Positions 844 to 46,100 of a stretch of DNA of 64,000 bases are shown here, piece after piece. The stretch spans positions 31,682,001 through 31,746,000 of the forward strand of contig CM060733.1 in the NCBI GenBank assembly GCA_030704615.1, in the 5' to 3' direction. Every line of letters starts with the position of its first letter. Position 1 is the first letter of the stretch. The position numbers were made by a program, and so were the translations under genes. This stretch comes from Takakia lepidozioides (taxonomy: Eukaryota; Plantae; Bryophyta). A model generated the notes under the pieces. That model was not told where the DNA came from and ran no database searches. It worked only from the letters and a program-made list of their open reading frames with translations.

Positions 844-3466
844 TGTCGATCATTTTTTTAAAATTCTAATTAAAACAACGTCTTCCATATACATTAGTGT
901 ATATTTTATTGAGTTGAGTACAAATTATAGCAGAAAATCTTCAAGAGGTGAAATATAGCAATGACAAAGCTGGAGTAACTATCGGAGGAAGCCGGATGTG
1001 ATAACGGCTTCTTCCTCAAAGAAGATCAACGACATGTTTCAGGAGGATAGGAAAATTCAGACTGTGAACCGGATTCGGATTTTTGAAAACCCATCTCTGG
1101 CGACTAGTTTGTCTGACCATGGGAGGCTTGGCAACGGAATTGTCATTCCGGAGGATGTTGTATCACTGGAGAACCTGCAGAAAGTGACATCCCATCATAG
1201 AGAGGACTAGCCCAATGACAACTCCTTGATTCCGGGGTTGACAGACCATGTGGCATTGGAGTGCATCGCAGAGGAATGCAACTTTTGGGCGGACAGTATT
1301 CTAGAGGTTGTATGGAGGTATGATCTAGAAATCAATGAGTAGTCTTCAGCGCCAAGAATGATTTAGGATCGATGTCTTTGTAAGTTATGCAGGAAAATAT
1401 GCTTATCTTGCTGGAGGATCTCACCAACAGACGACTCTCAGAACAACGCTACAACTCGCTACTTCAAGCATGGGAACCTCTCCCCGATCTCAAAATAGCA
1501 CGGAAAATGGATCTAATGGGAAAACAAGGATAAATGCTAACCGCTGGATACTGGCTAATCAAGGGTAGCGATCCCACTTCCCAAACGGATGAATAACATG
1601 GATGAGAAGCAACATTCATAAGGACTTAAAACGGACAATGTACCAACTTAAGTTGGTCATGTGCCAAGGTGGAAGATAGATGAAAATTATGGAAGGATGA
1701 AAGTTACAGACAGATGAAATTAGTGGATGGATGAGAGATTACAGGCTGGATGACAAAAAAATAAAATGGATCACAATGACAATGGATGGAGGAAAAACAC
1801 GTGGTTCGATTTGGGTATGTTATAATAATGGACACTCTAGGAAAAATTAATTAAAAACTTTAACTAGGTGTCGGTGCTTAAATGCACCAGTGGTGATTTA
1901 TTTATTTTTTTGAGAAAGGGATGGATGATAGCCGTCAAAACAAGTGACGGATGGAGGGCGACGGGCTGCTATAAATCAGCCGGCGAACAGGGACAATCCA
2001 ATCTCTCTCTCGCTCTTCCTTCACTCTCTCTTTCTCTCTGCCTCCCATTCTCCCTTTGACAAACTTAGTTAGTTTAGATAGAACCAGAGCTGAAAACTCT
2101 GATTCAACGTTAATGTGGTGTTTAACGTGGGCTTGAAAGTAATAGGGACTGCAGTACGACGTTTTACCTGTAGAGTCATACTGGTCCATAGTTCAAGTTA
2201 TGGTCATAATTGTTGGGTAGATTTTGAAACACATGTATCGTATTTGTTTCTTTTACCTTTGTACCACCGTTTTGGAATTTAGAAAGCCCACGATTGCAGG
2301 ATTGCCAGTTGCCTACAGGTACCCACATTTCAAGTTCAAGCATTTTAGCACCTTGATGATCTTTAGAAAAGCTCCCTCGTATTCAAGTGTGCGTCAAATC
2401 AGGGTATCTAGACGTGCATTTTCCGTTTTTATTCAGGCTTGAACTGGTGTCATACACGGGAATAGTTATCTACCTGAATCGTTTTGTTACGTGAACTTAC
2501 TGGTTAGTGAATTTGCTCGCACCCTTGAGGTTAGGGGTTCAAATCCCTCTTCTTGTATTTCTATCTGTAGTTAGTTTTTTTTGTTTTCTCGTGTTTATTT
2601 TCATTGGATAGATCCTAGAAATGAATATTAAGTAGTTAGATTACTACTTGTACTCTCACAAATCCACCTTGGTCTGTTGGTTAGGGACCTCTGTTGCATC
2701 GCCGAGGTTGGGGGGGTCAACTCTCGTTTATTGCAACTTAGTTGGTTTTGCTTATATTTAAAAAAAACCCTTGAAATAGCTCTATAAGTAATTAAATAGG
2801 CTAGTTAGTTTTGAATGGTTCTTGATGGACTTATTAGTTAGTGGTTTAGCTTGCACCTCCGAGGTTGGTGGTTCAAATTGTCGCCGCACTGCTCCCTCTA
2901 AGCAGTTTTGATTCTCTCCTTTTATTTTGGTTATACTAAGATTGTTTGTTGGGCTGATCTTTTCCTTAGAATGATCTAATTGCTTATCTATTCTTGACTC
3001 ACATAAATTAATGGGGACTAGTAAAATTAAAATAAATCAATATCCCTATCTTTTAAACGTAAATATATACATAAAATCCTCCAAAAAGAAAACAAATAAT
3101 TAAGTTGGTTGGTTGAAATTAAATTTTGTTGTTTGCTTAATAACTAATATTTACACTAGGCTATCTTTTTTATGCGTATATGTATATATATATATATATC
3201 TAAAAATCATAATTATTTATCCCGAAGTAATTATACATTCATCTTACTTATTTCTAGACTATTGTTTTCGTAAATACGTCAATGAGTTAGCACTAACTGT
3301 TGGTTACAAATTACAAACGCAAACACTTATAACATAGAAAATTTATAAATCCACACTAGCAGCACCCTTGGAGCTAGGTGGCGCCTTCGGGACCTAACCT
3401 GACTCTGTCTAACACAAACCTTAAATTAAGTATGCAACTGTTAATGGGGTACATTAATGGTTGACA
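844..3466. mobile_element. 2.6-kb TG...CA insertion with 5-bp TSD (solo LTR or non-autonomous LTR-derived element)
   Basis: Starts TGTCGATCATT and ends AATGGTTGACA (9/11 inverted match). Flanked by TGCAT at 839-843 and 3467-3471. Removing it restores the PPR unit ATGAAGGATGCATTAAAGG seen at 328. Confidence 0.85.
1211..1510 (+). pseudogene. F-box/kelch-repeat protein fragments inside the insertion
   Basis: DNSLIPGLTDHVALECIA is an F-box start. VVWRYDLEINE*SSAPRM, YAYLAGG and RYNSLLQAWEPLPDLKIARKM are kelch blades, with stops and frameshifts. Confidence 0.75.
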
Positions 3467-3775
3467 TGCATTAAAGGTGGTGTTGGGCAGTATGGCTAAA
3501 CGAAATGTGGTGTCGTAGAGCGTGGTGGTGACATGCTATAAGCGCTACAAGGGCAGCAGAGGGAGGCTTTGGAGACCTCTAAGCACATGTGCAAGCTTGG
3601 CAGCCCTAGAAAATGGAGACGAGGTCCACATCGTCAAAGTTGTAGTGATTGTATCAGATGTCATTCTGAAAGTTGCCCTGGTGGACATGTATGTCAAATG
3701 TGGGTATATGAAGGATGCAAAGGGAGTGTTGGGTAGCTAAGGGGCTATATGCAATGGGGTGTCATGGAGCATAGT
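3467..3775 (+). pseudogene. Fourth PPR pseudogene unit, continuing the array after the insertion
   Basis: Near-identical to the units at 340-843 (ORF 3522-3740: CASLAALENGDEVH...VDMYVKCG). Confidence 0.85.
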
Positions 3776-10020: not shown

Positions 10021-11143
10021 CCTTTGGACGCCGACTCACAAAGTCGCATGTGACGCACTTTGCAAGCTATAGATCATACGTTTCCACCTCGTTTCCATAG
10101 TGAATTAGTTCTTGCGATTTTGACCTGTCTTTGAAACAACCCTATAATTTAGGCAATGAGCATTCTTTTCCATAACACTGTTTTCCTCCACCACACCCAT
10201 GCCCGAATACATTGGCAAGACATTCGTTAAATAGAAACCTGCTCTACTCCTCAAGAATCAACCCGTCACACTCCGATGTCTAAATCTCATGTGGATGAGA
10301 CGAGAGAAGACTTCTTAGGATGGATTGTGGCAGAAGGGAAAGAACAGTGACTGCAAGATGATGAAAAAAATTGAAAGGAGACGGATCATATAAGTTACAG
10401 AAACCGCCCTACCCTAATTTGTGCGAAGCTATCTGTCGTGCACCTAAGCATCGTGCCACAACATACATTGCTGTCCAACCACACTTCATAGCATATAGTC
10501 CTAGAAAGCCATGCCACAATAGTGATACGGAAATGGTGAAAAGAGGAGAAACCACTCTATCACATTATATAAGTCAAGCCAATGGCACCTTTGCTAAAGG
10601 ACTCCACCATACAGACCTCACCCACTCTCCATCTCAAGTACTAGAGCTATGGCGGCGAGAGAGGCCTCGGGAGGCTCGACTAGAAGAAGACGAGCCTGCC
10701 TACATCTCACGTGGAGATAACCTCCCTACGTCCCAAGTGAGGTTCGCCACCTCACTTGGCACATGGAACCAAATGAAGTCCCAATGCCAACAAAATACAA
10801 ATATGAATGTATAATGTCCTAATTAGTTAGAAATAACTATTTCTAACTAATCACAAATAAAACCATGACAGCTGTCGTGCACATAAGCATCGTGCCACAA
10901 CATACATCGCTGTCCAACCACACTTCCTAGCATATAGTCCTAGAAAGTCATACCACAATCGCTCCCCTAGCTGTTGATTAGGTCCTTCTAACATCGGATA
11001 GCTTGCAAGTATCCACCCCAATAAGATAATCGCTTGGTCTTCAATCGCACAAGTCCCAACACCTTGGGATCTATCCTCCCATCCATATGTGGAAGGTGAC
11101 ATGGCGCACAATTGCACACATGGTCCTTCCATACCCTACCATC

Positions 11144-12183
11144 TCAATCCTCCAGAATCAACACTCCTGAAGGCAACACCTCCCTGACCCTTAGAATCAC
11201 ACGTCTTACTGTGACATCCAAGGTCGTAGACGCTGTCTGCTGCAGATACACATAGTCCCCAGGGTGGAAATGCCGAACACCTAGCCGATATCCCCCTCCA
11301 CGTTTAGTGACGTACCTCAAAGTGTCTTGGTGTTGGGCAATAGCAAGGTTCTCAAAAGCCATAGGCATGACTCTCTTGAACAACTCTGCCTGCTGGGCAC
11401 ATGCTTATGTCCACACATCCGGATCATCAAGGTTGAGAACTATTGCCGCCTCCCTGCAAATAGATGTAGGGAAATCCAGCTCTCGGCCGAAGAGAAGAAA
11501 GTAAGGTGAGAAGGAGGCAAGTGAAGCTTGTTTGCTGAACCTATAGCCCATAGCTAGCCAAGGCAGTTGAAGGTCCCAATCTCCTAGGTATCCCTTCTGC
11601 AAACCGTATTTGCGCAAACCTCTCTTGATTGTCTGAACAACTCTCTCCGCCAAGCCATCAGCCTCAGGATCATCCCGAGAAGTAGTGCAGTGATCTATCA
11701 AGGCTTGCTCACACAAAGCCTGAAACTCCCCCAAGAACTCTCTCCCCTGGTCCGTGAGTACCTCGGCTGGAGCACCAAAATGGCTAAGCACTCGATCTAA
11801 GAATGCATACGCAGCTCCCTCACCTGCCTTGTCAGGCAATGCCACCAGTTCAATCCATTTGGAGAAGTGTTCCACCATCACCAACGCATACTTGTTATGG
11901 CAAATCGTCAGTGACAATGGCCTGCGAAGTCAAGACTCCAACGATAGCCCAAACCCATAATGGGTAAAGGATGCAATTGTGGAGTAGGAGTGTTGAAAGA
12001 AGCCCGCACTCTATCACACACCATGCACCTTGCCACTAACTGTTGCACATCCGTGTGCATGCCCCGCCACCAATAATGCCCTTGCAGCAAACTATGAGTG
12101 CGCCGCACCCCAAAATGTCCCAACTTCTCATGGGCATGGCGTACCAATCGCACTCGTTGTGTTGGATGAGGCACAATCCTCAC
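11144..12183 (-). pseudogene. Gypsy integrase (HHCC zinc finger, DDE core, C-terminal region), frameshifted
   Basis: HAHEKLGHFGVRRT...CMVC, WSLDFAG, VLTDQGREF, ADGLAERVVQTIK, and FHPGDYVYL downstream. Confidence 0.9.
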
Positions 12184-12499
12184 TCGTCCATCTTCCCATA
12201 CCCGGAGTAGATGAGTCCCCTCCCACTTGAACCTCTTGGCTCATTGTAGGACCCGATCTCTCTCCTTAGCAGTCACACTGACTGCTGTCTCTCCGGTACG
12301 AAGGTATGCCAACACTGCTGCATCTTCATGCACATCCTTAGCACCACCAAACTCCTCACTAGTCTCTGGATTGTCATGCACGCTATCTACATGACCAATC
12401 GCATGGGATGGACCAGCTTGAGCTCCCATTGTTAGAATGCACAAAAAGACCGATGCATGCCATCCTGGCACCATCTCCTTATCTGTCTCACCATGCCAC

Positions 12500-12910
12500 C
12501 GAGCTCCAGTATCATCATGCTCGCACGTGCATGGATTACAACTCAATCCATCTGCATCCCGATTGACAATACCGGCTCGATGCACCACCTAGAAGTCGTA
12601 CTCTTGAAGCATAAGTGCCCACCGTGCAAGCTTCCCTGTAAGCTTGTCTGACTCCATCAACCACTTCAATGGTTGGTGATCCGTGACAAGGGTGAAGAGA
12701 TTGCCATAGAGGTAACATCTGAAATGTGCCACTGCCCATACTGCAGCTACATACTCCCCTTCATAAGAACTATACTTCGCCTCGGCATCATTGTTCGAGC
12801 GGCTAGCATATGCCACTACGAACTGCAGAAGTCAATCAAGCCTTGAGTTTCTCAAATGCTTCCTCCTGCTCCTCCTCCCATTGCCACTCCTGACCCACCT
12901 TGGTCAACTT
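12500..12910 (-). pseudogene. Gypsy RT-connection and RNase H remnant; RT core absent
   Basis: KLTKVGQEWQWEEEQEEAFEKLKA, then VVAYASRS..AEAKYSSYEGE..FTLVTDHQPLKWL..KLARWALMLQEYDF and HRAGIVNRDADGLS. No YxDD RT motif is visible. Confidence 0.85.
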
Positions 12911-13234
12911 CGTAGCCTCCACTTGCTCCGCCATAGCCACCTTGAGAACATCCTCTGAGCAAGAAACATCCTCAACCTCTTCAAAAACCTTGGTCACCTT
13001 GGCCTCCAACTGATTCTCAGTCCCACTCCTCATACTGCTGCTTGAGAGATCCAATGACTCTCTCTTTGCGCATCTCATCCCACATCTGCCATGGGTGTTT
13101 GCAACCCACGATCCTGTGCTCGTCCCCACTCTCTGCCTCAACCGTCCCGGTTGGCAGGGAGGATGCACTATCCAATGGGAGTGCAGAAGTAGCCATCAAT
13201 GCTTGCAATCTCCGTTGCTCAGCCATGCACAAGC

Positions 13235-14172
13235 CAATGACCCATGTCAAGCAATTTAGATCCATTGCTTGACCCAACACTTGGCGGCGTGATGCCTCTG
13301 ACAGAGCTGTCACATCTGTAGTGCCGGTGGCAAATCCCATTGCCTGCTCTCGCTCATCCGCATTGGGCTCCACCAATTGCTGTAGCACACTGTCCCAAAT
13401 CAATCCAGGACCATTGTCTCGAAAAGCATGAGACGAGGGAAAGCTCATGAGCGTAGGCAAAGCCGAACGTGGCTGCCCCACTCGATTGACCACTGCTAGA
13501 GGTGGACGGTCATCATGTCGCACCCTCTGTGGTTGTCTCCCTTAGTCCAAAATGCCATCAACTGTGAGATTGGGTGGTCGATGAATGAAATCGTATGCTC
13601 TCTTGAGCAGCTCTGGTGGTGCAAGATTGGTCCACCACAATCGAGGTCGATGCGTGCGTGATCCCATCGCTGTTGCATCCAATAGCACCGCCAATCCAAT
13701 CCAAGATCGCACCTGATGCACACCGGGCATAACCCTGGCCCGAGAATCCCCCATAAAAAGAACATTCTCCAAGATATAGCCTAGAGGTTGCACTTGCCTC
13801 GTCTGCAAGTCCCGCAGCACTCGCAACATCTCCCAAAACAAATGCGATCGTGCATCATGCAAGCCATTCCCATGACCTACGGGAGAGTGTCATTGGCAAG
13901 GCCATCCGGTTATCACCAAGTCAATGGAACCATGCCGTTGCAAATCATCCCCCCCTAGCAAGGTAATGTCTGCTGGCAAGGCCTTTTGATACCCTTGAAC
14001 TGCTGAGAGAGGCAACAACTCAGGATACCGGTGTGTGAACAAGACAATGTGGCGCATGGAAATACGCCGAGCAATCTCATCCTTCTCCACATACAAGTAC
14101 TTGCGTACTTTAATCCCTGCTTGCAACACTCCTGCAAGCCCAGTGCCTCCAAACAGGTCTAGCAAACAAATC
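13235..14172 (-). pseudogene. DNMT3-like C5-cytosine DNA methyltransferase domain embedded in Gypsy pol (two in-frame stops)
   Basis: One frame across ORFs 13890-14729, 13542-13862 and 13017-13523. Motifs: I LLDLFGG-TG, II YLYVE, III ADIT, IV GWPCQ, VI YILENV, VIII HRPRLWWTN, IX EREQAMGFATGTT, X RRQVLGQAM. Confidence 0.9.
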
Positions 14173-14619
14173 CCTGAGTCAGGTGGTTGCGAGGTAATGG
14201 GCACTGTGTCCAAAGGAGCTAACTCAGGAGGTCTATGTGATGTCACTGAACTCCCCTCACTCACCAATGGAAAGGCCTCCCGCCATGCTTGGTGCACACA
14301 CTCACCTGCTACTCGATGCAAATTCCCAACCGTACCCCATAGTGGAATATGCACAGGCACATGAGGAAGCAAATCAGCCTTGTATGCCAATTGTTTGTCC
14401 TCATCAAGTGATGGCCTATCATCTGCATGACTATTGCCCTCCAAGAGCTCACCACCCCAAGCCACCACCCCTGAGAATGCAGCCAATGTGGGCATCATAT
14501 TCCTATGATCCACCGCTACATTCCCAATAAACCGCACTGGGAGCAGTGCACGTCGGCCATCGCCTGACTGCCATTCCGGCCTGTAGGATGCCGTTTCCTC
14601 CCAAAAGTCCAGAGTGAAT

Positions 14620-14900
14620 CCCATGGGGTATAACATCGCCCCACCAACAAGCACATCATAAGACATCGCGTCCGTAACAATGGCTTTAGCTCTCATGACT
14701 GAGCCGTCCATAGGATTGTCCGGCTGCAATCAAATGAAGAGCTCATGGCGTGTAATCCCTCGTGCCTTTTCTGAACCGCCCAAAGATGTTTGGATTTGGA
14801 AAGGACAAGGCTCCAAATCCGCCTCTGTAAGGCCCAAGCCTGCAATTGCTGCTCTTCCCAACATCAATGGCTGTGCTCCCGAGTCCAACAAGACCCGCAG
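14620..14900 (-). pseudogene. Retroviral-type aspartic protease of the Gypsy element
   Basis: RVLLDSGAQP (catalytic D codon 14885-14883) and C-terminal YDVLVGG. Same frame as the DNMT, with one TGA at 14732-14730. Confidence 0.85.
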
Positions 14901-15469
14901 TGGCCTATACCTCTTCCCAGCTGGGCATGGAGGAAAAGTACTGTTGTTGGAAATAGTGAGGAATCACTACATGATACACGGGAGGGATCCTCTTCTCCGA
15001 CGCTGTTCTCTTCCGGTATAATTGCCACTTTCCCTTCAGCACTTTAGTTTGAATTTTGAATGCAACAATCCTCTTCTCCACATATCAACATTTCGTTGGG
15101 TGATTGTAGTCAAGAAGTCATAAGATACAGACGTGACTATGACTACGTCACTTCCGTTATCATTTTAATTAATGCACATGTCGTGTTTTCATTGGTCATG
15201 TGTAGTCATGTAGTCATATATGACTTACTAAGTGACTGCAACTATGACTTCAATGGCTACAAATGTCGTGTTTTGATTGGGTGTATATTCATAAGATACA
15301 TATGTAAATATGACTGCATCACTGCAACGTCTCCGTGCCTCCTATGTCATAATATGAACAAGTGTCACATCTAAGCAATAGATAAGACTATCATTAAATA
15401 ACCTCTCAAATAACGAAGTTCGCAAACTTGGACTCCAAACAGTCCACCAAAAGGCCCTAGGCGCCCGCC

Positions 15470-15860
15470 AATTAGTGGCCTCCAAGGTCTCCAACCAGCC
15501 CTCACAATGGCTCCACAAGCCTGCCCAATATGGCCTCCAAGGACCTCCAACAGTCCTCCAACAGTCCTTAAGAAGCTCCTCAAATCTGCCAAGTATTGGC
15601 CTCCAAGGACCTCCAACAGTCCTCCAAAGAGCTCTTAGAAAGTTCCATAAGTCTGCCCAATATGGGCCTCCAAGGACCTCCAATCGTCCTCCAACTAGCC
15701 CTCACAAGGCTCTACAGGGCTGCAAAACATTGGCCTCGAAGGACCTCAAATAGTCCTTCAAACAGCCCCAAGCAGGCTCCACAAACCTGCAAGATATTGG
15801 CTTCAATAGACTCCAAATAGTCCTCAAAGCAGGCCCCAGAAGGCTCCAAAAATATCCATA
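15470..15860. repeat. ~67-bp tandem repeat, ~6 copies
   Basis: GGCCTCCAAGGACCTCCAA-like motif at 15477, 15532, 15598, 15665, 15732 and 15799. Confidence 0.85.
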
Positions 15861-15867
15861 GTCGATT

Positions 15868-16378
15868 TTACATCCGTCACTGACCCAATTTCATCCAAAA
15901 CCGTGATTTCTCATCTGCAGGTCCGATACTTCATCCACCACGATAGTTCATCTGTCGGTGCGATATTTCATCCACTGGCGCGATTTCATCCGCTGGCGCA
16001 GTTTCATCCATCCCCGCGATTTTTCATCCAATGGCACGATAGTTCATCCGCTGCCACGATTTCATCCGCTGACGCAGTTTCATCCGTCGCCGCGATTTTT
16101 CATCCGATAGCGCGATAGTTCATCCGCTGACGAGATTTCATCCGCTGGAGCAGTTTCATCCGTCGCCGGGATTTTTCATCCGATAGCGCGATAGTTCTTC
16201 CGCTGACAAGATTTCATCTGCTGGCACAGTTTCATCCATCACCACAATTTGTCATCCGATAGCACGATAGTTCATCCGCTGACGAGATTTCATCCTCTTG
16301 CACAGTTTCATCCACTACAACCGATTCTCATCCAGGAGCGTCGATGTTCATCCACTGGCTCAATAAGTTCATCCGATT
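15868..16378. repeat. CG-rich ~19-bp TTCATCC minisatellite with ~76-bp higher-order unit
   Basis: TTCATCC recurs every 18-21 bp. CCGATAGCRCGATAG recurs at about 16104, 16180 and 16256. Confidence 0.85.
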
Positions 16379-18030
16379 GGACAATGGTGGTGCTCCCAAC
16401 TCTGGGGCAATGTTCCCACGCATTCCTATGCGTTCCCACGAGTTCCCAAAGAGCTCCCAAGCGTTCTCACGCGTTCCTTTGAGTTCCCAAGGAGTTCACA
16501 CGCGTTCCCAAGCTAGGGTTTGCGCCGCTTTGCCTTTGCGATTGCTGCAACGAGCTATGGCTTCTATGGAGCAACCAGAGGTGCTGTTCTTGGTTTCTTG
16601 AGCATCAATAGACCACCAAGAGTGCCTCTAACTCCTTGAGCAAGCTATTTGCCACACAACAAGCTCTCTTTCTCTGTGGAACTTATTGAAATAAACATAG
16701 AACAAGCTATTGAGCTTTTATGGCATACCCTCTTCTAGCCATCGTATGCACTCATAGTGCTTCCTTCTATGGCCATAGTGCACCTCTTAGAGTTCCTAAT
16801 CCAGCCCTGCATTTGCCACTTCCATAGACCTGCTCTTCCCAAGCTTGGGATTGAAACTCCAACTCAAAGCATGCTCTACAAATACACTATTCTGCCCCAG
16901 ATAGAAATCAGATGTCTACCTCCACTCATAGCTCTCCTAAGCTTGAAGTTGAAGACTCCCACAAGCTGAAACCATGCTCCACACATGCACCGCTTGCTTC
17001 CTTAACACCTGAGCTCTTCTTGAACTTCTCAAACCCTGCAACACTTGCAGAAGAAGAGCTTCTTCACAAGCTCTCAAACTTTCCATTGGGGGTTTCCTTG
17101 AAGACCTCATCTTGTACATAAACACCACAAGGCTTTCTTCTTGCAAACCCTGCAACACCTTGTAACTTAAGAGCTATCTATCAAGCTCTCTTCCACACAC
17201 AAGTGCTAACTATGCTAACACCTTGCACTCATCGATGTAAGCAGGTCTTCTTCTAGTAATACGGAAATGGTGAAAAGAGGAGAAACCACTCTATCACGTT
17301 ATATAAGTCAAGCCAATGGCACCTTTGCTAAAGGACTCCACCATACAGACCTCACCCACTCTCCATCTCAAGTACTAGAGCTATGGCGACGAGAGAGGCC
17401 TCGGGAGGCTCGACTAGAAGAAGACGAGCCTGCCTACGTCTCATGTGGAGATAACCTCACCACGTCCCAAGTGAAGTTCGCCACCTCACTTGGCACATGG
17501 AACCAAATGAAGTCCCAATGCCAACAAAATACAAATATAAATGTATAATGTCCTAATTAGTTAGAAATAACTATTTCTAATTAATCACAAATAAAACCAT
17601 GACATATCCACCGGAACTTGACCTCCAAACAGTCGTCCATGAGAAGGTGAAGACAACTGAAAAACAAAAGCCCATCTATCAAGAGGATAGAAAACAGCTA
17701 GTAAAGAAGATCCGAAAAATTAACAGAGCTTTGCAGTGGTAAGAAAAAAATAGCATCACAGCAGAATAGAAGCTCCTTACTACACAAACAGGTACAAAAG
17801 AGAATTATACAAGCACCATAGGGCTAGTTATTCAAGACCACTTTCGGAGCTCCATAGGCCAAGAAGCAGGAACCAGCTATGGCTGAGCTGGACGAACGAA
17901 TTTTTTTGTTGGGAACACATAGTTTTTAAATGAGTAACTTATAAATCTCTACATTACAATTTAGACATTACATTTTTAGTCTTTCCCTCCTTGAGAACAT
18001 TGAAGAAAGCTACTATGTAAGTAGTATTCT

Positions 18031-23057: not shown

Positions 23058-23233
23058 GACAACCAAAATGTAGCCCAGTGGTAATGGGCACATACCACGT
23101 TGGACGTGGTTGTGGGTTCAAACCATGGTCTGGTGTGTCATGAAGGTGTGTCCACCTTCCTAGCGGAAGGCAGTAGCCCTTGGGGGTGAAGTGACTCCAA
23201 GTTACGCTTCCTTGGGGAGGCGTCATACTTTTT
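23058..23233 (+). mobile_element. tRNA-derived SINE with poly-T tail and 14-bp TSD
   Basis: A box GTAGCCCAGTGG, B box GGTTCAAACC (23115-23124), T-run tail. TSD TTTCACTGTAGGCC at 23044-23057 and 23234-23247. Confidence 0.85.
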
Positions 23234-23812
23234 TTTCACTGTAGGCCCTATAATTGACTAACTAACTGATTGACTGGATTCTGGAATTAGTGTATCGCTG
23301 TACGAGATACCAGTATATATCGTGTTTTATGACCAGCCATGGCAACTTTGGCATCAGCAAACTTGGATAAAACCAGTGCAATGCCATTCCCCAGCAGGTT
23401 ATCTAGCTACCCCGTCAAGAGCAGCTGCGATGAGCTGATCGATTGCATCAACCAGGCCCTGTGCCCCTGAGCTCTTCAATATTGTAAAATATCTACTTAC
23501 AGTCCAGCTGAAACTGGCAAGTACACAGTGACCAATCTTTTCTCCTCTAAAAAATAAAATAAGTAAACAAGCTTGCTTGCACGGCGTGTAGATGTATACA
23601 TCCGAAAACGGAGCCTCCAATGCAACTGATCGGATTGATTCTCTCTTGAGCACAAAGTGGCGGAGCGTGAATCGTCATTTTGGCTTTGTCTGTACTAGTT
23701 AGCCTTAAAATTTCGCCTTGTTTCTTCCTCTTCTATGTACAGACTTGCTCAAGTAGTTTGAAGTGCACTGATCACACCAAAAGCAACTCCAGTGCTCTGA
23801 ACTGTATCAACC

Positions 23813-25914
23813 ATGACCTTAGCCAAGGACCTCCAGCCTTGCAGCGTGCTTGCTACTGCAATTAAAGATGTGTGGATTCCACCTGAGATGCAACATCAAG
23901 ACAATATGCACTCTCGCAAGCAGTTGTCGGATTTCGTGTGCCCCGAGCATGAGCGACCCACCATTGCTCACAATGACTTCCAGGGAGGCGATCAGACCCC
24001 AGTCATTGACCTCGCAAAGCTCAAGACAGGTGATGAGAAAGACAGAGAGAGCCTAACAAGGAAGATGATGGAGGCGGGCTCCGAATGGGGGCTCTTTCAA
24101 GTGGTCAACCATGGCGTGCCCCTCGAGATAATGGAGAAGCTGCAGGCGCAAGCACGCGTTTTCTTTGGTCTTCCTCTAGAGCGAAAACAGAAGGCGAAGT
24201 TCAGTGGCCAAATAGGTGGCTACGGCCGTAGCCCGAGAAAGCGGGCAGCCAGCCCATGGATGGAGGGATTTTTCTACGAAGCAGATGTAGGATCACGTAA
24301 ATCGGACTTGAGAGAGTACGCACAGTTATGTCTTGAGGGTTCAGAGCTTGAGGAATTCAGGTACAAACTTACAATCTCAGCTGCTCGACGTTGCGGCTAC
24401 TTAAGTCACTTTCTTCCTATTTTCCGAGCAACAATTTTTTTTGTTCAAATACCCTGTTCAAATCTCTTTGTCCATGAATTATACTCCCGCCTATGATGTG
24501 CGAGTTGTCGAGTTGAGCCTTCCTCACATGAACTTCAAATTTTGTGTGGTGGGATTCCCTCTATCTGCTTTCCACCAATTAGTTCCGCATGAACCGAGTC
24601 AGATTCCCAGAACAGAACACTACTACTTGAGGAATTATCCTCTCTAGATGAATGCAATATCCAGCTAGGCTAGTATCACTTGATTGGCATGTATGTTGAA
24701 GGGAAGTGGAGCGATGTGATCTTGGCAAATTCCTTCTCAAGGACGAGCAACCATGATCGTTTGTGCTGGACCTACGATCATTTTTCAGTATCCAGCACAG
24801 ATATGCCGCCAACTGACAAGCTTAGTTCTTGAACAGTCGTGACTGGCCAATTCCATTAAAGTCTTCAGCTTCAGGAGCGGCTTATATTCTCTTTGCCCTT
24901 CCGAGGCCCTTCCAGAGTACTCAACTGATTTCAAGTGATAACAAACATCTGATTGCACACATACATGTGCATCTTATACTCTAGTGCGGAGTGGTCGGGA
25001 TCTCAAGACGAGTACTTGTCGTTCTAGTCTAGATTCTCATGAGATTGGTTTTCATTTCAAATGCAGCACTTGTCTTGAGGAGTTTGCAAGCTATGTGGAC
25101 AAGCTTGCTTTGGAAACCTTGGAGATTTGGGCAGAGGGCCTTGGGTTGCATCCAACCTTCTTCACGAACTATTTTCGCGAAGGAGGGTTGAGGAAGGGCA
25201 CTCGCTTGAACAACTACCCACCTTGCCCTGAGCCTTCGCTCACCCTTGGGCTGGGAGCCCACGCAGACCCCAACTTGCTCACCGTACTACTACAAGACGA
25301 GACTGGAGGATTGCAAGTACAAAAGGATGGTGTCTGGTTTACAGTTAGACCTCGGGTTGGTGCACTAATCGTCAATGTTGCTGATCTTGCTCAGGTATGA
25401 TGGCTGACACAAAAAGCAAAGATTATGAAATCTCAGAATTATTGGATTTCTTCTACACCCCTTCTACAAATCATGTCAAAATGATGTGAACCATGCACTT
25501 GCAACCTCTCCACTCTGTGTCAGATGAGCTGCTGGGAACCTCTGCACGGTTTTCCATATCATCGCGCAGATATCCCTGTGTACATAAATCTTGGACATTT
25601 CATGTCAAATATATGAAGTCAATCAGCTCTACACTAATAGTACACTTGCTCATCTTTCTCCACAGGGATTGAGCAACGGGCGATTGAGAAGCTGCGTGCA
25701 CAGGGTTGTTGTGAACGCCACAGTGCCTCGACTCTCGGTGGCTGCCTTCTACACCCCCAAAGTGCCAAGCACACTCATCTCTGCTCCCCCAGAGCTCATC
25801 GACCACCACCATCCTCGCCTCTACCGCCCCTTCTCCTTGGCTGACCACTTGCGCGAGATCCACCCCGACGCGCCCCACTGGCTCGAATCCTTTGCCATCC
25901 GCTCCCCTTCATGA
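23813..25914 (+). CDS. 2-oxoglutarate/Fe(II) dioxygenase, DOXC class (GA20ox-like); 3 exons (~23813-24360, 25067-25394, 25666-25914)
   Basis: PVIDL..EWGLFQVVNHGVP (DIOX_N); SPWMEGF (compare GA20ox LPWKET); RLNNYPPCPEPSLTLGLGAHADP (HxD); SCVHRVVVN (distal His); RLS (RxS). Confidence 0.9.
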
Positions 25915-28319: not shown

Positions 28320-28510
28320 AGAAAAAAAAAAAAAAAAAAGGTGGACGTGTTGCCGAAGCAAGCGTAACTTATGGTGTCACTTGACCCAAAAGGGCTCTTG
28401 CCTTCCGGTAGGAAGGTGGACACCTTTGTAGCAACCAACAGGATGGTTTGAACCCACAACCACTCGTGAGAGGGTATATGCCCTTATCACTGGGCTACAT
28501 GTTGGTTGTT
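28320..28510 (-). mobile_element. Second copy of the tRNA-derived SINE
   Basis: Reverse complement reads ACAACCAACATGTAGCCCAGTGATAAGGG..GGTTGTGGGTTCAAACCATCC..poly-T. TSD TCCAAGTG at 28312-28319 and 28511-28518. Confidence 0.85.
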
Positions 28511-37100: not shown

Positions 37101-40100
37101 AGATAGTCTACAGTTGACGAACCTGCAAAATGAAAATGAGTTGTGCACAAAGAATTGTGACCAGAATAAGGGAAGGCTAAAACGGACATAAAAATGCAAG
37201 GTAATATATGTTTATAGAGACACCATGGCACACACTTGATGGATGAGAAACATACTTGACAACTAATTCTGAGCTTGGTGGAGCTCCATTAGGAGGAAGA
37301 GGGAACCGGGACAAAAAGGGCATCACCAAAACCTCTCCTGCAGTGCCCTCCCCATTTTTTTCTTTCCCTTTGCCCTCCTTCTTCCTCTTCATTGTAGCAA
37401 CTTTCTTCATCCCACATGTAGTTGGCGGTTCCTGTATAATGCCACCCACACACTCCTTCGTAAGAACTTAACAGGATGCTTCCCTTCTTTGCGGGGGGCA
37501 CAGTGCGGAAGATGCAATAAACTTATTATGTCCACAGGAAACCCAGAGGGAGGAAGCAGATACAAAGAAAGAAACTTCAATGAGTCCACTTGAAAGCCCA
37601 AGAGGCCTATCAGACCAAGAGAGATTCAAAACTCTAAAGCTGTGATGAACTGGGTAAGCTCCTGGCTAATAATGCTTCAGACATTGGGCCCTTCTGTCAT
37701 CCTTACTTTAGCATCAACTGTCATACAAGAAGAATTCAGGCCCAGAAGAGCTACAGCAAATCTTTGCTTGAGCTTCTCAAATGAGCAAAAGAAGGTGCTG
37801 TGACAGTATATTTGTTGGTTTCAAGTAGGATCTATAATTGAGCATAGTACCCAATATAATGCATCAGGAAATGCTTGCTCGATTGATAGGACAGGTATAT
37901 ACCTACTGTCTGTTAGATGTCAGCTCAGATTTTGTTAGCTAGGGTTCTGTTAGGGTATTTGACAGCTAGGGATAGTTCTACCAGAAGGTTCCAGCACATG
38001 GTTCCGCCAGAAGTTTCTAGAGAACCCATGTAGGATTTAAGGGAAAGGCTGAGGCAATGCCCAGCACTTCTTCTAGCATTTTGGATGTGCTATCCTAGTA
38101 GATTGCAGAGAGAGGAGGAGGAGAAGTCCAGCATCTACTTTTGTAAGCTTTTCTTTTGCAGTAAGGAGCATTCTTGTTAGTACTAACTCTTTGGTTGGTT
38201 TAGGCTGTCAGTTTTTGTACTGCTGCTTGTGCTAGAAGCTATCAGTGCACTCTGAGAACAGAACGGGATGGGTAGCTCAGTCCCACCGGAATGGGGGAGG
38301 TCCTAGGTTCAATCCCTAGCCCGACCACACGCCAGTGGTTTTCCAACACTGTCAACATCCAGTTGAGATACCTTGCTGTAGAGAGGTACCCTAATGTTTG
38401 AGCTTCAGACTAGTGCTAAACACAAGGAGACATAAGAACATTTTTCTATCCATAGGAGGCCCGAACAGCACACAGGACACTGTAGAACTACAAGACAAAA
38501 TCAGGAAGTCTCGTAAAACTGGAAATGTTGACTGACTGCAGGTAAGCTGCTAAGCACTGTGGACCCTCATAGGTGAAGGCCTCTGCTACAAAAGACAGTA
38601 GTGGAGCTACTGTATTAGCATATAGTTTATGTAACGCCTCAACTTGCAGCATATGTAATGTTCCCATGGAGCGATAGCAGATCAATTGAGTATAATCTGA
38701 ATGGATGCAAGACAGGCATCATACATACTGGACAGCTCCTAGCCTCAGAACAAGAGAGCCTCTGGGGCATTAAGAATTCTGTCCATTCTCGTTGTTCTAC
38801 TCTGTCCCATTGGACCTTGTGGACGTTATATAATTTACTCATTTTTTTCCTTGGACGTTTTAACGTATCAGTTTCACTACTTTCCATTTTGTCCCATAAG
38901 CTCTGTGAGCTTTCCGCGGATGTTATAAAGCACCATTTCATTTCCTTTCAGAAATGCTTTGTATTTTTCATGTATGCTAGGTGAGGGAGCTTACCTAGCA
39001 AATATTTCCATTGAGGAAGGTCATACATTGCTTGGCAGCTTGGACGAAGCGTCGACTCTAAGACAATCCCTTGAGCAATAGTTGCTTTTGGGGTGCTTGT
39101 GGCCCCTCTCTCTTTCTTCCTCTTGTCCCGTATGCTCTTTGAGCTTCCCACAGATGTTGTAAAGTAACATTTCATTTAGTAGGCCTTCTGACTCCTCTGC
39201 CCTGTGGAAGACTACCAAAAGGCAATGCTGCCTCTCTCCATCTCGAAGGAAAATGCAACAAATCTAATTTCCGTCACTGTCCAACCAAAAAGTGGCTTTT
39301 TGACTCTGTTGTCACTCTATGTGACTCTGAACTCTGAGCCCTTGGAATCCTGGTTTCTTGGTGGGAGGAAAACCTTCAACCTCTACAGTCGTCTTTACTT
39401 CGAGGACTGCTGGGAGCTAGGTGCACAACGCCATTCAGGTCTTATATGCCAAATTTGCTTGCATAGCCCTCAAGCTCAAGGCCATATTTTAACTCGCTGG
39501 TTGAGATCTCTGGGCCCCAAGTGGTTTACAGCCGGTGACAGCATTGTCAACTATACAAGAAGGGTGACAGAGAAGAACCGGGGAACTACCGTGGCATCAC
39601 GCTCCTCAATGCTGTTGGCAAGACATTCTGCAGAGTTATAAGTACTCGTCTCGAGGTTGATCTGGAGTCTAGAGGTTGTTTCCACAAAGGCCAAGCTGGC
39701 TTTCGGTGAAACAGGGGCTGTGTGGATCATATCTTCAGTCTAAGCCAGATTATCCAGGGAAGGAAAAAAGAAGGGAAACCCACTTATGTTTTTTTCCTGG
39801 ATGTCAAAAAGGCTTATGACACAGTGTGGAGAGATGGCCTATGGTTCCGCCTTAGGTCTTGTGGGATCAAGGGAAAGATGTGGAGAGTTGTCCACAACTT
39901 GTATGCTCACACCAAAAGCTGTGTCACTGTTAACGGACAGAAGTCCAACTTCTTTGACATAGACCAAGGTGTAGCTCAAGGATGTACTCTCTCCCTTCTG
40001 CTCTTCAATGTTTTCATCAATCAACTCCTCGAGGATGTGGAAAGTGAGGGATTTGGGTTAAGGGTGGGTGATACCACCATACCAGCCCTTATGTTTGCGG

Positions 40101-43100
40101 ATGACTTCGCAGGCATAGGGGAGACTCCAACCAATCTCCAGGAGTTGATTGATTGCGCGAAGAGATACTTTGATCTTTGGGGGCTAGAGGGTAATGTCAG
40201 CAAATGTGCAGTGGTAACATTCAACGACAGAGGAGAGGGAGGAAGTGATCTTAAGTGGCAGTGGGGTAGCCAAGAGATCCCGGTCCTGCCTTCCTACACT
40301 TACCTGGGCATTGTGTTTTCCTCCAATTGTAATTGGGATGCACATATCCGGAAAGTTGTTCAAACTGGCAAGGGCAAAGCTCTGGGCTCACTAAATTTTT
40401 CCACTGCAGAGGGGTCAACTCTGAGGTTAAGAAAACCATGCTTTGTCGCGTTATTAGACCTGCCTTGGAGTACGGATCTGCAATATGGGTTGATGACTCC
40501 AACCAGGCTAAGTCTCTAGAATCCATTCAAGTGGGGGTGCTTAAGGAGTGTATGTCAGCATGCTCCAAAACAGCCAATGTGGCTGTTCGGGGTGAGTTTG
40601 GCATTCCGTCCTTAAGCTCCCGACGAGATGAATTCAAGGTCAGATGGTGGGGTCAGCTGCAACATATGTCCAACACCAGGTATCCTAAGTTAATCGGCTC
40701 TATATCTTGGAAACAGGACCGCCCTGTCAAACAGGCCAAGTCCTGGCAGAAGAGAGTAGAAGAGATTCTCAAGGACCTGGACCTGGATCCGCAAGTCTTG
40801 ACCCTGCTGGATAAATCTGACAGGCTGTAGTGTCCAAAGCCACGTCTGTTGCCATGAGATTGTCTGATGAAAATGAAGTTAGGCAGAAAACTTCCCTGAA
40901 CTTGTTTCCAGTCAGTGACATGGGGGAGGACATCTTGGATGACCTCAAGGGTCTACCCACTCTCGGCACTAGACTGAAATTTAAACTCAGGGCAGGAAGC
41001 CTACCTTTGAACAGCAAACAGAAGCAGAGAGGAAAGGGAGATTGCAATTGCCCGTTGTGTGGGCAATCTGAAGACAGTATTCGTTTTCTGATACACTGTC
41101 CGGGGTTCTCTCACCAAAGAGGCGCTCTCTTCAAATCTATCAAGGGAATTGTGCCTGTACCCCTGTTTACCAACTTTGAAAGTCTCGAGGCTGAGCCAAA
41201 AGCCCAGGCCCTCCTGAGGCCTAGTTTTTGGGCAAATCACACACAGCAGATTGATGCTTGTGTGAAGGGATTTCTAGAGGATATCTGGAAAACCCGGATT
41301 AATTCTATATATGAAGGTAAGTCTTACTACCAACGTCAGCCCCTGACAGAGGTAGGTTCTGTCCCTTTTGTTCCCGCTCAAACTGGGCGCGGGGTCAATG
41401 GCCACAAGGCTACGGCAAACAACGTCTTATGAGTACAATCTATGAGACTCAAAGCGGTTGGCTTGAAGGCATGCTAGTATGCTCATGTCTCCACTTCTTT
41501 GAATGCCATGGCTGCTGTCTCTTAACAAAACCAGGGGAGCCTGGAAATCGTGGCCAAGCATGGCAGGAACAGGCTTAGGGCACCTTTCCATGTGACCCCC
41601 AGAAGCTGACGTCATTTAGTCAAGCCTTGGAAATGCCTTGCACTGTGATCTTTCAACCCTCTCAACACATTCTGGGGTGGGGGGTTGGGAGTTGTAAGCC
41701 GCCGCGGAATCTTGGGCTGTCCATGGGTCCCAGGCAGTCTATCCACCCTGCCATAGCAGGTCAGAATCACAGGATAACCGTCACTATTGAAATTAACAGG
41801 GTTTCGTCTTCTCGTTGAAGCAATGACCTACACAGCTCTGTCTGTCTCATCGAGATGAAGAGACAAGTCTCCCGCGACCTGTCTAAGCGGTGGCACCCCA
41901 TCACTACCTGGTATCCACAGGTGGCAAAAGCAAGGCTCGTCGCCCTTTATCCATGGACCATGGGTGACCCAGACACTGCCCTATGTTATCCACAGGTCAC
42001 ATGGAAAGAGGCCCTTATCAGGAGTAGCTGTCAGCACTCCATCTTCAATCAGCGGCACCCCATTCAACAAAGCTGTGACGCTTGTGCAAGCCTGGCAGCC
42101 CTGGAAAAGGGCAACGAGGTCCACGGTGACATCATCAGAGCTGGAATTGTCTTCTACCATGACAACTTCCACATCCTCCACCATAATAGAATCGTACAGC
42201 TGAATTACTTGTCTGCAACTCTATCGCCCTCTCTTCAAAAAAAAACAAAAATGAAGGTGGGGGGGGGTTTAGACATTGGGAAGGTTCAGGGTTGACTCAC
42301 ACAAGCAGATACAGAGTGTTAGATGGGACAACCCAGAGTGTGCGGATAGCTTGTGTCCAGCATGCATTAGAGCAGGCAGACAGGAGATTGAGACTGAAGA
42401 ACATTTCTTCCTCCCGTTTCCTCTCTACTAAAGGATCTGGGCCTGTTACAGTGCCTGTTCCGGGACAGCCAATCAGACCTTGCTGAGGTCTTCCATTATA
42501 TGAGGACCAGAAATGCCTGGCAGCATATGTACATGAGGCCCTTCACCTTAGAGAATCTCATAAGGCTGAATCTAGACACTGAGTTTTTGGGCTGCTTGTT
42601 GAGGCCCTCACGTCCTTATTGTATGATACTTTCTTTATCCACATTCTGGAACAGTTCTCCAAAGACTATGGGCTGCAAGTCAATCTTAGCAAGACCAAGA
42701 TCATGGTCTTTAATGGTCAGGCTAGACTCATCTTCAACCACCAGGAAATTGAGATTGTGAAATCAGACCGGTATCTGGGTCTGGTTATCCACTCCCCCAA
42801 ATTCCACTTTGCAGCCACTGCCCTGGACAGATCGACTAAAGGGAAGGCGGCCTCCATCCGCCTTCAGGCCAAATGCAAACAAATACACCTACATCACCCC
42901 CCAACCAAAAAGTGGCTGTTTGACAGCGTTGTCAACCCTGCTACCCTCTATGGTTGTGAATTCTGGGCACCTGGTGTTCCTGTCTCCTGGTGGGAAAAGA
43001 ATCTGGAACCATTGCAGTCATCCTTTCTCCAAGAAAATGCTTGACGCCAGAAGCACAACTCCATCTCATATCCTAGGTGCAGAGTTCGCATGCGTGCCAC

Positions 43101-46100
43101 TGCAAACCGAGGCCCTCTTCTGGCTTACAATCTTTCTCCATAGATTACACGCCCTTCCACCCAAGGGGCTCGTGGCAAGAGCCCTCGCAACATCTATGAG
43201 GCTCAAAGCTACAGGTTTCAGGCACTCCTGGTATGCTCGAGTGGACAGTTTATTTCAGCGCAATGGACTCTCTACTGCTTCCCTATTACCAATGAATCCA
43301 GAAGGGGTGGACATCACATCCAGACATGACCGCAACAGACTCATTAGGAGAGGACTTATGGAATTACATGTCAAGAGAACTTGGAAGCTACCCAATCTCA
43401 CGACAAACCTCCACTTCTATCGAGAGACATTCTTGGTGCTCCGAGATGATAGAATCTTGAGGCCAAATTACCTTTCGGCATCTTTATCTCCTTCCCTCCT
43501 GAGGGCATTGGGGCGGTTCAGGGTGGGTTCCCACAACCTACAGATAGAGACTGGCAGATGGGAAAACCTGCAACGGGAGGACCGCCTATGTCCAGCTTGC
43601 ATAGGGTGCAGCCGGGAAATTGAAACTGAAGAACACTTCTTCTTCTACTGCCCTCTATACTACCCGATCCGTGGGAGATTCCACTGTTTATTCAGAGGAA
43701 CCCAATCTCTCACTGAAGTCTTCCACTATGAGGATCAGAAATGCCTGGCAGCTTACCTGCACGAGGCCTTCACCCGTAGACAATCACTAGAACAATAGTT
43801 CTTATTCTTGGGGTTTTGGCTTTGTTTCCTCTCACATGTTTTCTTCCATTTTGTCCCATAAGCTCTATGAGCTTCCCGCGAACGTTATAAAGCACCATTT
43901 CATTTCATTTCATTTCATCTATCCCATAAGCTCTTGAGCTTCCCCTGGATGTTATAAAGTTCCTTTCCTTTCCTTGGATTAGCTACCACTCTCCCCTCGT
44001 TAGCATTCAGAGTGTTTCTCTGATTACCAACCCTGTCTGGGGCAGCATTTCCTCCCTAAGAAAGAGAGGCAGACAGAGACAGGGAAAGCAGCACATTCAG
44101 GGAGTTTAAGCTGGTAAGAAAACCCGTAAGACGAGCAAACCTTGGCTGTAGCAATGAGACCAAGCAAATTTAATGCACTTTGTCGAGGAGTCATCAGGTC
44201 CTCTTTCCACCCACTTGCTTCATCCTGCGCCAAAAGCAACTACTGTCTAGCATCACTATGTTCATTGCAAACAGACAGAGGATAATTGACAAAGGCCCTC
44301 ACCAAGAAGTCGGTGATTGCCAAGTCAGACAAACAGTACAGATGAGAATAAAGATATTCCAGACAAAGAAGTTGGAGAGAAACATAGACAGTTAGAATAC
44401 TCTGCCAGGCTAAGATGTCAATCTTAATTAGGCCCCAACGAAGAGATACTGATGCTCTCCTCACCTAGTCAACACTTGTTCATAAATAGCACAGAGTACA
44501 CAATAGCTAGTTATACCAAATCTGAAGGAAGATTTTTGCGCAGGTACTCATCTTCGTCCTCCTGCCACTCCACCATATCCTGCAGAATGATCCAATTTTA
44601 TTATTTCTCGAGCTTCCTTCTCTGAATTATCTACTTTCAGTATTGCATGCATTAAAAACATCACCTTGCCGGAGGTCTACAGGAAACTAAACCACATGAA
44701 CAATATATTCTATCAACACCAACATGTACCTTCTCATTCATTTTGAGGGCAGGAAAGATTGCACTCTCTAAGAGACATGAAAAACAAGGTGCCATGAGCC
44801 GCCATCCCTGCCATACCAACAGCATCCTACTCACATTTCTCAGCAAAATCCTCATTTATTGGTAATATGTCCATTGGCAAGCACATCCGATACCACTGAC
44901 ATAACAAGCTGGTACTTTGCTCTTAGAGAACCGTGAACACAAAAAGAAGATGAACGGTGTGATAAAACTCAAGGTTACTCTCAGTTGACCTGATTGCTTC
45001 CAAATAAAGACCATCGCAGTTCACCTGAAGCTTCAATTGGCATGAACACTGGTGGAACCACATACAAGGCATGACACATGAAAAGGAATCGTGTACAAGT
45101 TGTCCTCATTCTGTTTTGAAGCAACCAGGCTGAGTGACACTTACAGGTCCAGTCTCAAGAATGTTGGAGACCAGATCAAATGACAGTGACATGATATGTT
45201 CCTGCATCGGATGAAGGTCCTGCAGAACCGAACGACGACCATCAATCGAGTTAGGTGCCTGATGACCTTAAAATCACTAACAAATACAAGTATCTGTGTC
45301 TAACCAAATGCTATCCATCATCACCATTCTCTATTTTCACGAGAGGAAGATCCACTAAACCTCAGGTAGTTTCAGTATCTTAGAAGTTGGGACTTACCTT
45401 GGCGTTCACAACTTTCCTCACAACTTTGAGTGCTGTATTTGACATTGCAGGTAGATACCTAAAGCATCACCCATCCAAGGCTGTAGTTATGCACAAGTTT
45501 GACATCACTAAGGCACACACTCGTCAACCTACTAAAAGACTAAGAGTTCTAGCCTCCCTATGTGCTGTAAGACACCATTATTCTTCTCAGCATGCTCACA
45601 AAATCAGAGTGGCAAGTGTGTGGAAGTGCACAGATAAACTATCTGCAGAGACCATTTACCTATATATCATGTGAATGCAATTTGCTATCCTTGTTGACAG
45701 CAGCCCACCCTCAAGGAGGATTTTAAAATGAAGAGTGGGGAGACACGCAACAATCTTACTTGTCAACATGCTTAAGATGCCGCACTACCAGGTTGCTGCA
45801 GATTTGAAGCACCCTCTTCCAAGTTTTGAGCCTCGGCTGCTGCTCACGAGAGTCCAATCGTTTCTCAAGCATCACCATATCCAGCAACACCATGAGATCT
45901 TGGAACCACTGTCCCAGGCATGAGAGGAGCGATGCTGGCATGTGCGACTTTATCTGTCACCCCTCCCACATGCAGGAAAATAAGTCTCCAGTTGGTGAAC
46001 TAATATGGAGGTACATGATCCTTGCACAAACCTAAAATTCATTCTCCTGAGGGGAATGTAGGCTTGAGGCATACATTCACTAGGAAACCCAGGATGATAT

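Follow-up and report, generated by a model that had tools for sequence, protein, structure and literature searches.

Among the systems closest to the element considered here are retrotransposons that encode a Dnmt3-type cytosine methyltransferase of their own. As set out in the accessible text of one article (de Mendoza et al. 2018, PMC5890265), KnitGypsy-Dnmt3 of Klebsormidium nitens combines Gypsy domains and an unpermuted, intronless Dnmt3 with DIRS-like repeats and purifying selection, and SymbioDIRS-Dnmt3 of Symbiodinium encodes an enzyme shown in yeast to perform de novo CG methylation; the species table there includes Physcomitrella and Selaginella, liverworts and Sphagnum being absent from it. 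The DAM-LTRs/EpiLTRs, Ty3/Gypsy elements with DNA methyltransferases, carry a cytosine enzyme sister to DNMT4 plus an adenine methyltransferase and a chromodomain, whereas the enzyme here is DNMT3-like; the available part of the preprint on them names streptophyte 'Gypsy-DNMT3' as known (bioRxiv 10.64898/2026.05.21.726589), in line with the usage of later papers by the group that described KnitGypsy-Dnmt3. The element in question lies in a 64,000-nucleotide stretch of Takakia lepidozioides (Bryophyta; assembly GCA_030704615.1, contig CM060733.1, positions 31,682,001 to 31,746,000), referred to in its full length as the window. It is a dead, decayed and heavily rearranged copy and, as to both family and kind, very probably a member of a multi-copy Ty3/Gypsy family of non-seed land plants in which a DNMT3-like domain is placed between protease and reverse transcriptase (RT). 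The explanation that best accounts for the whole, a decayed land-plant Gypsy-DNMT3 copy whose kind would methylate its own complementary DNA (cDNA) and integrate from circles with two long terminal repeats (LTRs), is considered probable, and its parts are graded separately below.

Compared by published description, the window element and KnitGypsy-Dnmt3 are most likely of one kind, so that land plants did not invent it separately. The Gypsy domain set, the intronless and unpermuted Dnmt3, the order A-coding-B-A-B of its repeats and purifying selection are common to both; different are the land-plant hosts and the place of the domain, which in the nearest relatives ends the Gag-protease frame and in KnitGypsy-Dnmt3 lies in the Pol frame. 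Analyses of target duplication, junction, primer and read-through are given here and are not part of the text available on the Klebsormidium element. SymbioDIRS-Dnmt3 is alike in having a Dnmt3-type domain within a retrotransposon and A-coding-B-A-B repeats, but it uses a tyrosine recombinase, whereas a DDE integrase, TG..CA ends and 4-bp target duplications are seen here; no tyrosine recombinase was found in the window or in 11 scanned homologs, an rve integrase being present instead. With host plant DNMT3 (PpDNMT3a/b, in the part of Yaari et al. 2019, PMC6453930, that was available) the element shares an unpermuted DNMT3-type catalytic domain. The DUF3444 of host DNMT3 and the permuted order of DRM are both missing from it, and its domain sits inside a retroelement polyprotein.

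The methyltransferase of the window is read from the minus strand, where 14963-13020 form one frame of 648 codons with three stops (14732-14730, 13892-13890 and 13544-13542). The original prediction, made from the letters of the sequence, had an aspartic protease running into a C5 cytosine methyltransferase in one frame with three stops, its motifs I to X in canonical order unlike those of the permuted DRMs, and on all these counts it holds. The protease motifs are LLDSGA and YDVLVGG; those of the methyltransferase are DLFGG (I, two codons shorter than in relatives), YVEKD (II), GWPCQ (IV), ENV (VI), HRPRLWWTN (VIII), DEREQAMG (IX) and RRQVLGQAM (X), an order that is canonical from I to X. The profile check that had been proposed, PF00145 on the stop-read-through translation, gives E 2.1e-10 and 41 bits against a cut-off of 22 (Pfam); only the read-through passes, single open reading frames staying below the cut-off at 19.4. 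For the protease, Asp_protease_2 reaches only E 0.034 on the read-through, and the region nonetheless aligns with intact relatives. Downstream, Pfam recognizes RNase H (E 1e-25), the integrase zinc finger (E 6e-17) and rve (E 6e-12). That an RT connection, RNase H and integrase follow was also foreseen, and they do, with 25 residues of the RT connection left, but RNase H and integrase are in other frames and the single frame is common to protease and methyltransferase only. Alignment to an intact relative and domain queries detected no RT core, gag or PHD in the window copy, so the view of it as dead and RT-deleted can be widened to loss of gag and the PHD finger. The parts are as follows, positions being those of the window.

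10434-17604, minus strand: whole element, 7,171 bp, starting TGTC (17604) and ending GACA (10434)
17605-17608, unstranded: target-site duplication on the 5' side, 4 bp identical to 10430-10433
10430-10433, unstranded: target-site duplication on the 3' side, 4 bp
17254-17604, minus strand: repeat A1, 351 bp, 97.2% identical to A2 in self-comparison
17413-17425, minus strand: predicted self-primer tract in mid-A1 and likely transcript start, a 13-nt complement of the A1 3' edge
17245-17257, minus strand: predicted primer-binding site at the A1 3' edge, with no TGG of the transfer RNA (tRNA) type
15430-16375, minus strand: tandem 67-bp and 76-bp repeats of the 5' leader
14916-15371, unstranded: stretch at the position expected for gag, likely another repeat, with contig breaks and no gag match
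14526-14918, minus strand: aspartic protease (LLDSGA), one stop, aligning with intact relatives
13218-14174, minus strand: DNMT3-like methyltransferase domain of the C5 cytosine type, with motifs I to X, interrupted by two stops, the catalytic Cys being encoded at 13898-13896
12836-12915, minus strand: remnant of the RT connection, the RT core being absent
12541-12822, minus strand: RNase H, N-terminal part deleted; 36 contigs depart from the window at 12824
11108-12336, minus strand: DDE integrase with zinc finger, core and C-terminal part, with stops and a frameshift
10959-10968, minus strand: polypurine tract immediately 5' of B1, conserved in Sphagnum-type loci
10873-10958, minus strand: repeat B1, about 88 bp, 94.3% identical to B2
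10863-10879, minus strand: B1/A2 junction, a near-palindrome in which both element ends are joined via 2 bp (CA-GC-TG)
10520-10870, minus strand: repeat A2, the pair of A1
10434-10519, minus strand: repeat B2, its joint with A2 at 10520 being the predicted circle junction

In the direction of transcription self-comparison thus gives the order A-coding-B-A-B, with B on both sides of the second A. The limits 10434-17604 fit with a contig of the host sequencing run X1 in which the left flank (10433) is joined to right-flank-like sequence with the four bases present once, as at an empty site. Two identical direct flanking LTRs, the canonical structure, are not what is found, so that of the Gypsy LTR element originally predicted the Ty3/Gypsy domains stand and the plain LTR layout does not. 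The 351-bp repeats cannot be taken for ordinary LTRs or solo LTRs, since neither has a target duplication to itself and the one that exists flanks A1 and B2. A1 and A2 differ at 10 of 351 sites, 9 of them by transitions, and B1 and B2 at 5 of 88. At the A2/B2 joint (10520) three letters are missing in 5 contigs. Elsewhere, 41 X1 contigs depart from the window at 14915, and an X5 contig spans 14926-15371 and then diverges. At least 20 contigs depart from the window at 13022 with letters that, by eye, look like the 14 window bases that follow; this would imply a short indel there, and the RT-less junction may then be shared among host copies. The CpG ratio, 0.48-0.65 in the element against 0.42-0.51 in the window, shows no useful difference.

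That a Gypsy family of land plants carries the domain as a regular trait, as the original prediction had it, is borne out widely. Protein searches with the domain gave 45 and 20 matches at E<=0.001, with identity up to 69%; the named homologs, matching at 45-67%, include many Marchantia polymorpha gene models, Calypogeia fissa and three Sphagnum species. A profile search gave 471 clusters at E<=1e-30, of which the best 150 were looked at. Among homologs of at least 900 residues, domain queries place a retroelement domain (gag, protease, RT, RNase H or integrase) in 136 of 138. In 80 metagenome loci, many of them repeat assemblies of one insertion or one host genus so that the counts are not independent, protease lies upstream in 49 of the 52 with enough flank, and 45 of 47 have RT, RNase H or integrase on the downstream side. 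The complete order in relatives, protease-RT-RNase H-DDE integrase, identifies the window copy, which is without the RT core, as Ty3/Gypsy. X1, which may be the source of the window, yields 23,765 contig pieces matching the element, and its summed depth reaches 85,000-151,000 across the methyltransferase compared with 110-170 in flanking sequence, a figure that is no copy number. Element pieces also occur in two possible RNA runs and are not taken as expression.

Path distances in the DNMT and integrase trees correlate (FastTree; r 0.74 over 92 rows, 0 of 999 permutations reaching it), and the window falls into a group of liverwort and Sphagnum-type rows with Shimodaira-Hasegawa-like support of 100 (the name Sphagnum-type reflects that the first frame of most of the metagenome loci ends with the sequence of a named Sphagnum protein). 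The co-variation of the two trees across the whole sample, with chlorophyte-named rows in the DNMT tree, suggests that the capture was a single, old event. Distant relatives, including most long profile-search matches, more commonly show a second architecture, RT-RNase H-DNMT-integrase-PHD (P0059-P0066); Cymbomonas is named among its members and Haematococcus groups with them. In both trees a single branch separates the two architectures: the methyltransferase domain moved once within the polyprotein. Additional domains are seen in some homologs: two of 70 with DNMT and PHD (P0060 and P0061) have adenine/N4 methyltransferase motifs behind the PHD (MethyltransfD12 E 0.0035 in P0061), making them possible dual-methyltransferase elements with a DNMT3-type domain, and in P0063 and P0113 a G-patch domain separates the methyltransferase from the integrase. 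P0021, whose record assigns it to a Candidatus Obscuribacterales metagenome-assembled genome, is nearly identical in the tree to retroelement locus L059, and is probably eukaryotic DNA in that genome's bin.

By sequence ranking and by structure model the domain is DNMT3-like, which agrees with the resemblance of its motifs to DNMT3 that had been pointed out at the outset. The 16 best of 48 matches in a PDB sequence search are all DNMT3A (best E 4e-10; DRM2 E 0.02), and family profiles rank DNMT3A first (E 3e-20), followed by DNMT3B (9e-18), the DRM type (8e-10) and DNMT2 and bacterial enzymes (1e-6). For a close relative, P0002, the structure model (predicted local distance difference test, pLDDT, 72; predicted template modelling score, pTM, 0.79) also has DNMT3A as best match, at E 5e-19. 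The circularly permuted motifs that define DRM are not seen in the window domain, there is no intron, and Pfam finds no DUF3444 in the window read-through or in 11 scanned homologs. The catalytic Cys is kept in 195 and the motif VI Glu in 196 of 197 domains. Between the two least damaged loci, L058 and L059, the ratio of nonsynonymous to synonymous substitution rates (dN/dS) is 0.11, and the corresponding ratio of proportions (pN/pS) is 0.29-0.31 for the window against three loci and 0.42-0.62 among decayed copies; these comparisons of sequence show that the domain is under purifying selection. Among viral contigs there were just 6 C5-methyltransferase matches, all weak and partial, with nothing that points to a phage donor, and the Atlas match for the Marchantia domain only repeats the Pfam family.

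In near relatives methyltransferase and RT are in the same frame phase with a stop between them; in 34 of the 35 loci where both are in phase (16 out-of-phase loci being left aside) an in-frame stop lies 21-32 codons before RT, with CAR as the next codon in 31 of the 34. UAG-CAR-YYA is a read-through context. Locus L059 illustrates this organization, with a gag-protease-methyltransferase frame of 1,369 codons, a stop, and an RT-RNase H-integrase-PHD frame of 1,047 codons; intact relatives carry a C-terminal PHD finger. The original description of the domain as 'inside pol' therefore fits deeper relatives and not the nearest ones, where the domain ends the Gag-protease frame before the conserved stop. 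An enzyme made with Gag would be present in many copies per particle, which would suit methylation of new cDNA.

Comparison of relatives extends the repeat layout beyond the window. A complete 3' B-A-B is present in 7 Sphagnum-type loci and in the more distant L064 and L070, and none of 17 visible starts (16 distinct insertions) has B ahead of the 5' A. TG..CA ends with a 4-bp target duplication characterize 5 of the 6 insertions with both ends visible. The CA-NN-TG motif of the B/A junction recurs in the distant L058 and L059, and the B/A site contains a CG. Within a copy, B1 and B2 share private variants (5 columns, in 3 of 7 loci), some of them 7 and 15 columns from the B start; B1-B2 distance is 0.070 within and 0.092 between copies, and there are no fixed differences between the two. 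Shared private variants so near the B start, with no fixed differences, suggest that B2 is recopied from B1 in each cycle.

Priming is a related matter. Tf1/Sushi elements are described as self-priming, and the Tcn1 clade of mosses is predicted to be so, in the available part of one article (Neumann et al. 2019, PMC6317226); those elements, Tcn1 being found in mosses, resemble the present one in the lack of a tRNA primer site and in the predicted self-priming, but have ordinary LTRs and a chromodomain where here there are split repeats, a PHD finger and a methyltransferase. After A1 no tRNA-type primer site was found, nor was any tRNA gene in the 64-kb window. In all seven elements 10-17 nt of the A1 edge are complementary to a mid-A tract in at least one A copy, and at most 1 of 300 controls was as good in 12 of 14 tests; the 13-nt complement of the window was matched by none of 300 control 22-mers. 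The tract sequences of the window, the Sphagnum type, L064 and L059 are unrelated, all four, and yet the pairing is kept. The predicted fold of the window RNA pairs the tract with the A1 edge (z -2.65), and in four relatives a TATA-like box stands 26-31 nt 5' of the tract. Such comparisons make it quite likely that the element RNA primes itself.

A life cycle that accommodates these features can be proposed. Transcription would start in mid-A, and the RNA would prime its own reverse transcription as in Tf1-type elements. Gag-protease-methyltransferase would be made at the level of Gag and RT-RNase H-integrase-PHD by read-through of the stop, giving many methyltransferase copies per particle. 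With the polypurine tract setting the B start and the self-primer the A end, reverse transcription would yield an ordinary linear cDNA, B-A-internal-B-A. Joining of the cDNA ends would then create the A/B joint and a two-LTR circle, and the DDE integrase would cut the near-palindromic B/A site beside the joint with a 2-bp stagger, leaving CA-3' ends and inserting A-internal-B-A-B, a circular permutation of the two-LTR circle; the 4-bp target duplication argues that it is the DDE integrase that performed the insertion. The methyltransferase would mark the cDNA, the new copy arriving methylated; by analogy with SymbioDIRS-Dnmt3, CG would be the likeliest context. A partial precedent is the foamy-virus DDE integrase, reported in the available text of Delelis et al. 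(2005, PMC1180852) to cleave the palindromic junction of a two-LTR circle and so give processed ends, with the difference that its cut is at the LTR-LTR junction whereas here the predicted cut lies within the LTR and what integrates is permuted. From the sequences compared, integration from a two-LTR circle is slightly favoured, and for element cDNA as substrate of the enzyme the chances appear evenly balanced.

Several observations weigh against this account or parts of it. A circle offers two B/A sites and only a single product is seen (the 0 of 17 above), so that a bias is needed. L048 has no target duplication, its 5' end being eroded; two of the 14 primer tests were not better than control (67/300 and 7/300); and the window has no TATA-like box. 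The window copy, with its shorter linker, and L061 are without the conserved stop, and the deeper relatives P0058, P0080, P0225 and P0227 are single frames. The DNMT3 call comes from ranking, the trees being without host DNMT3, DRM and MET1, and the dependence among metagenome counts has been noted. As to activity, no methylation was seen when the Klebsormidium enzyme was tried in yeast, a test its authors call inconclusive in the accessible text (PMC5890265). That the family belongs to the same lineage as the Klebsormidium elements is likely, with shared descent being drawn from their published description.

Of the alternatives to be considered together, that nearest to the proposed cycle is that the split repeats are copied directly from an RNA spanning A1 to B2, with no joining of ends, the integrase then cutting a circular or linear form. 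The PAT/Ngaro-type route of tyrosine-recombinase elements is such a copying of split repeats from a spanning RNA. Identity of A-coding-B-A-B with the DIRS-type layout speaks for it, and it would explain both the single permutation and the precision of the A/B joint in most copies. It sits poorly with the copy-private B1/B2 variants near the B start and the lack of fixed differences, by which B2 appears recopied, with a polypurine tract and a self-primer that delimit B-A as in a linear LTR, and with the 3-letter variation at the joint in 5 contigs; this route is judged a minority possibility beside integration from a two-LTR circle. About as doubtful is a different target for the enzyme, be it insertion flanks, other transposons or host chromatin reached via the PHD finger, or a mark on one B/A site to steer integrase. 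The C-terminal PHD of intact relatives and the CG within the B/A site would suit it, and conserved catalytic residues are compatible with any substrate, but the nearest relatives tie the domain to Gag-protease and not to integrase, as suits a role inside the particle, and its position shifts between subfamilies while the PHD stays on integrase.

Origin raises two further alternatives. Independent acquisition of DNMT3 in land plants and Klebsormidium, or horizontal transfer from algae, would accord with the repeated capture of DNMTs by retrotransposons and with the likeness of liverwort and moss domains (60-77%, high for transposons of hosts so distant); no Klebsormidium or Chara name came up in the protein searches, the representative search (best 150 of 471) or a 10-protein cluster look-up. 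Against such origins, a rare repeat layout is common to this family and the Klebsormidium elements, and the DNMT and integrase trees co-vary, making them unlikely in comparison with a single lineage. The alternative to a family trait that the original prediction had itself named, a one-off capture in this copy, here of a host DNMT3 or DRM fragment, or else an assembly chimera, draws what plausibility it has from the heavy rearrangement of the window copy. The recurrence of the same domain order upstream and downstream in nearly all metagenome loci, its presence in named genomes and in thousands of X1 pieces, the lack of an intron and the absence of DUF3444 from the 11 homologs leave it next to no credibility.

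Other features of the window are of separate interest. At 62916-63900 (plus strand) three apparent exons encode a protein resembling beta-class amino-methyltransferases (DIPD, then VLDLSMGT; motifs by eye), for which Pfam and PDB gave no match and Atlas weak methyltransferase leads (N6_N4_Mtase 0.85); it merits attention given the N4-methylcytosine (4mC) enzyme of liverworts, and may belong to another transposon, a 41-bp inverted repeat (60660-60754) preceding it. An intronless gene for a pentatricopeptide repeat (PPR) protein of the PLS type, 1,090 residues with an E motif, occupies 56397-59672 (minus strand), with further PPR fragments at 200-850 and 3400-3730. An intron-containing cytochrome P450 gene (17990-21550, minus strand) ends about 400 bp from the 5' end of the element. 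A 2-oxoglutarate-Fe(II) dioxygenase gene (23801-25400, plus strand) is flanked by imperfect inverted repeats about 5.2 kb apart (23106-23199 and 28372-28463). The PPR, P450 and dioxygenase genes point to a land plant as host, and the PPR gene together with the element's neighbours in the tree to a non-seed one. Two RT remnants resembling long interspersed nuclear elements are at 39710-41432 and 42583-43798 (plus strand), the first with RVT_1 at E 1e-23.

As regards earlier accounts, no description of a land-plant Gypsy-DNMT3 or of its repeat mechanism was found in a literature search to which subscription journals and repeat databases were mostly external. The accessible text of PMC11244446, PMC11982613, PMC8616336, PMC9940879 and PMC12344493 holds none, though bryophyte sequences may be present in figures or supplementary files of PMC5890265, of PMC12344493 and of the 2026 preprint. 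Judged by sequence, what is new is the extension to liverworts, peat moss and the host of the window, with chlorophyte relatives in the second architecture. New too is the anatomy obtained by comparing copies, i.e. target duplications, an internal attachment site, a self-primer and a conserved stop, which yields a testable replication model. The fullest version of that model, a Gypsy clade spanning the green lineage that self-primes, loads a DNMT3-like enzyme at the level of Gag, integrates as a rule from a two-LTR circle opened inside the LTR, and is present in Marchantia, is put forward tentatively, at a little under even chances.

Surprise at the finding is lessened by the earlier description of the kind in a charophyte, and some of its consequences are practical. 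Annotators of liverworts and Sphagnum should be warned that many of the PF00145 gene models labelled 'hypothetical' there are copies of a transposon, and, if the model is true, the clade would have been overlooked because LTR finders need two plain flanking LTRs. In the textbook view two-LTR circles are dead ends, and their use as integration substrate would, again if true, be an exception to that view. The usual story of silencing is inverted when a transposon itself supplies a de novo methyltransferase. The question of what the element gains from the enzyme, which dates from the 2018 yeast result with Klebsormidium, becomes testable through the family's presence in Marchantia, with its tractable genetics and methylome data.

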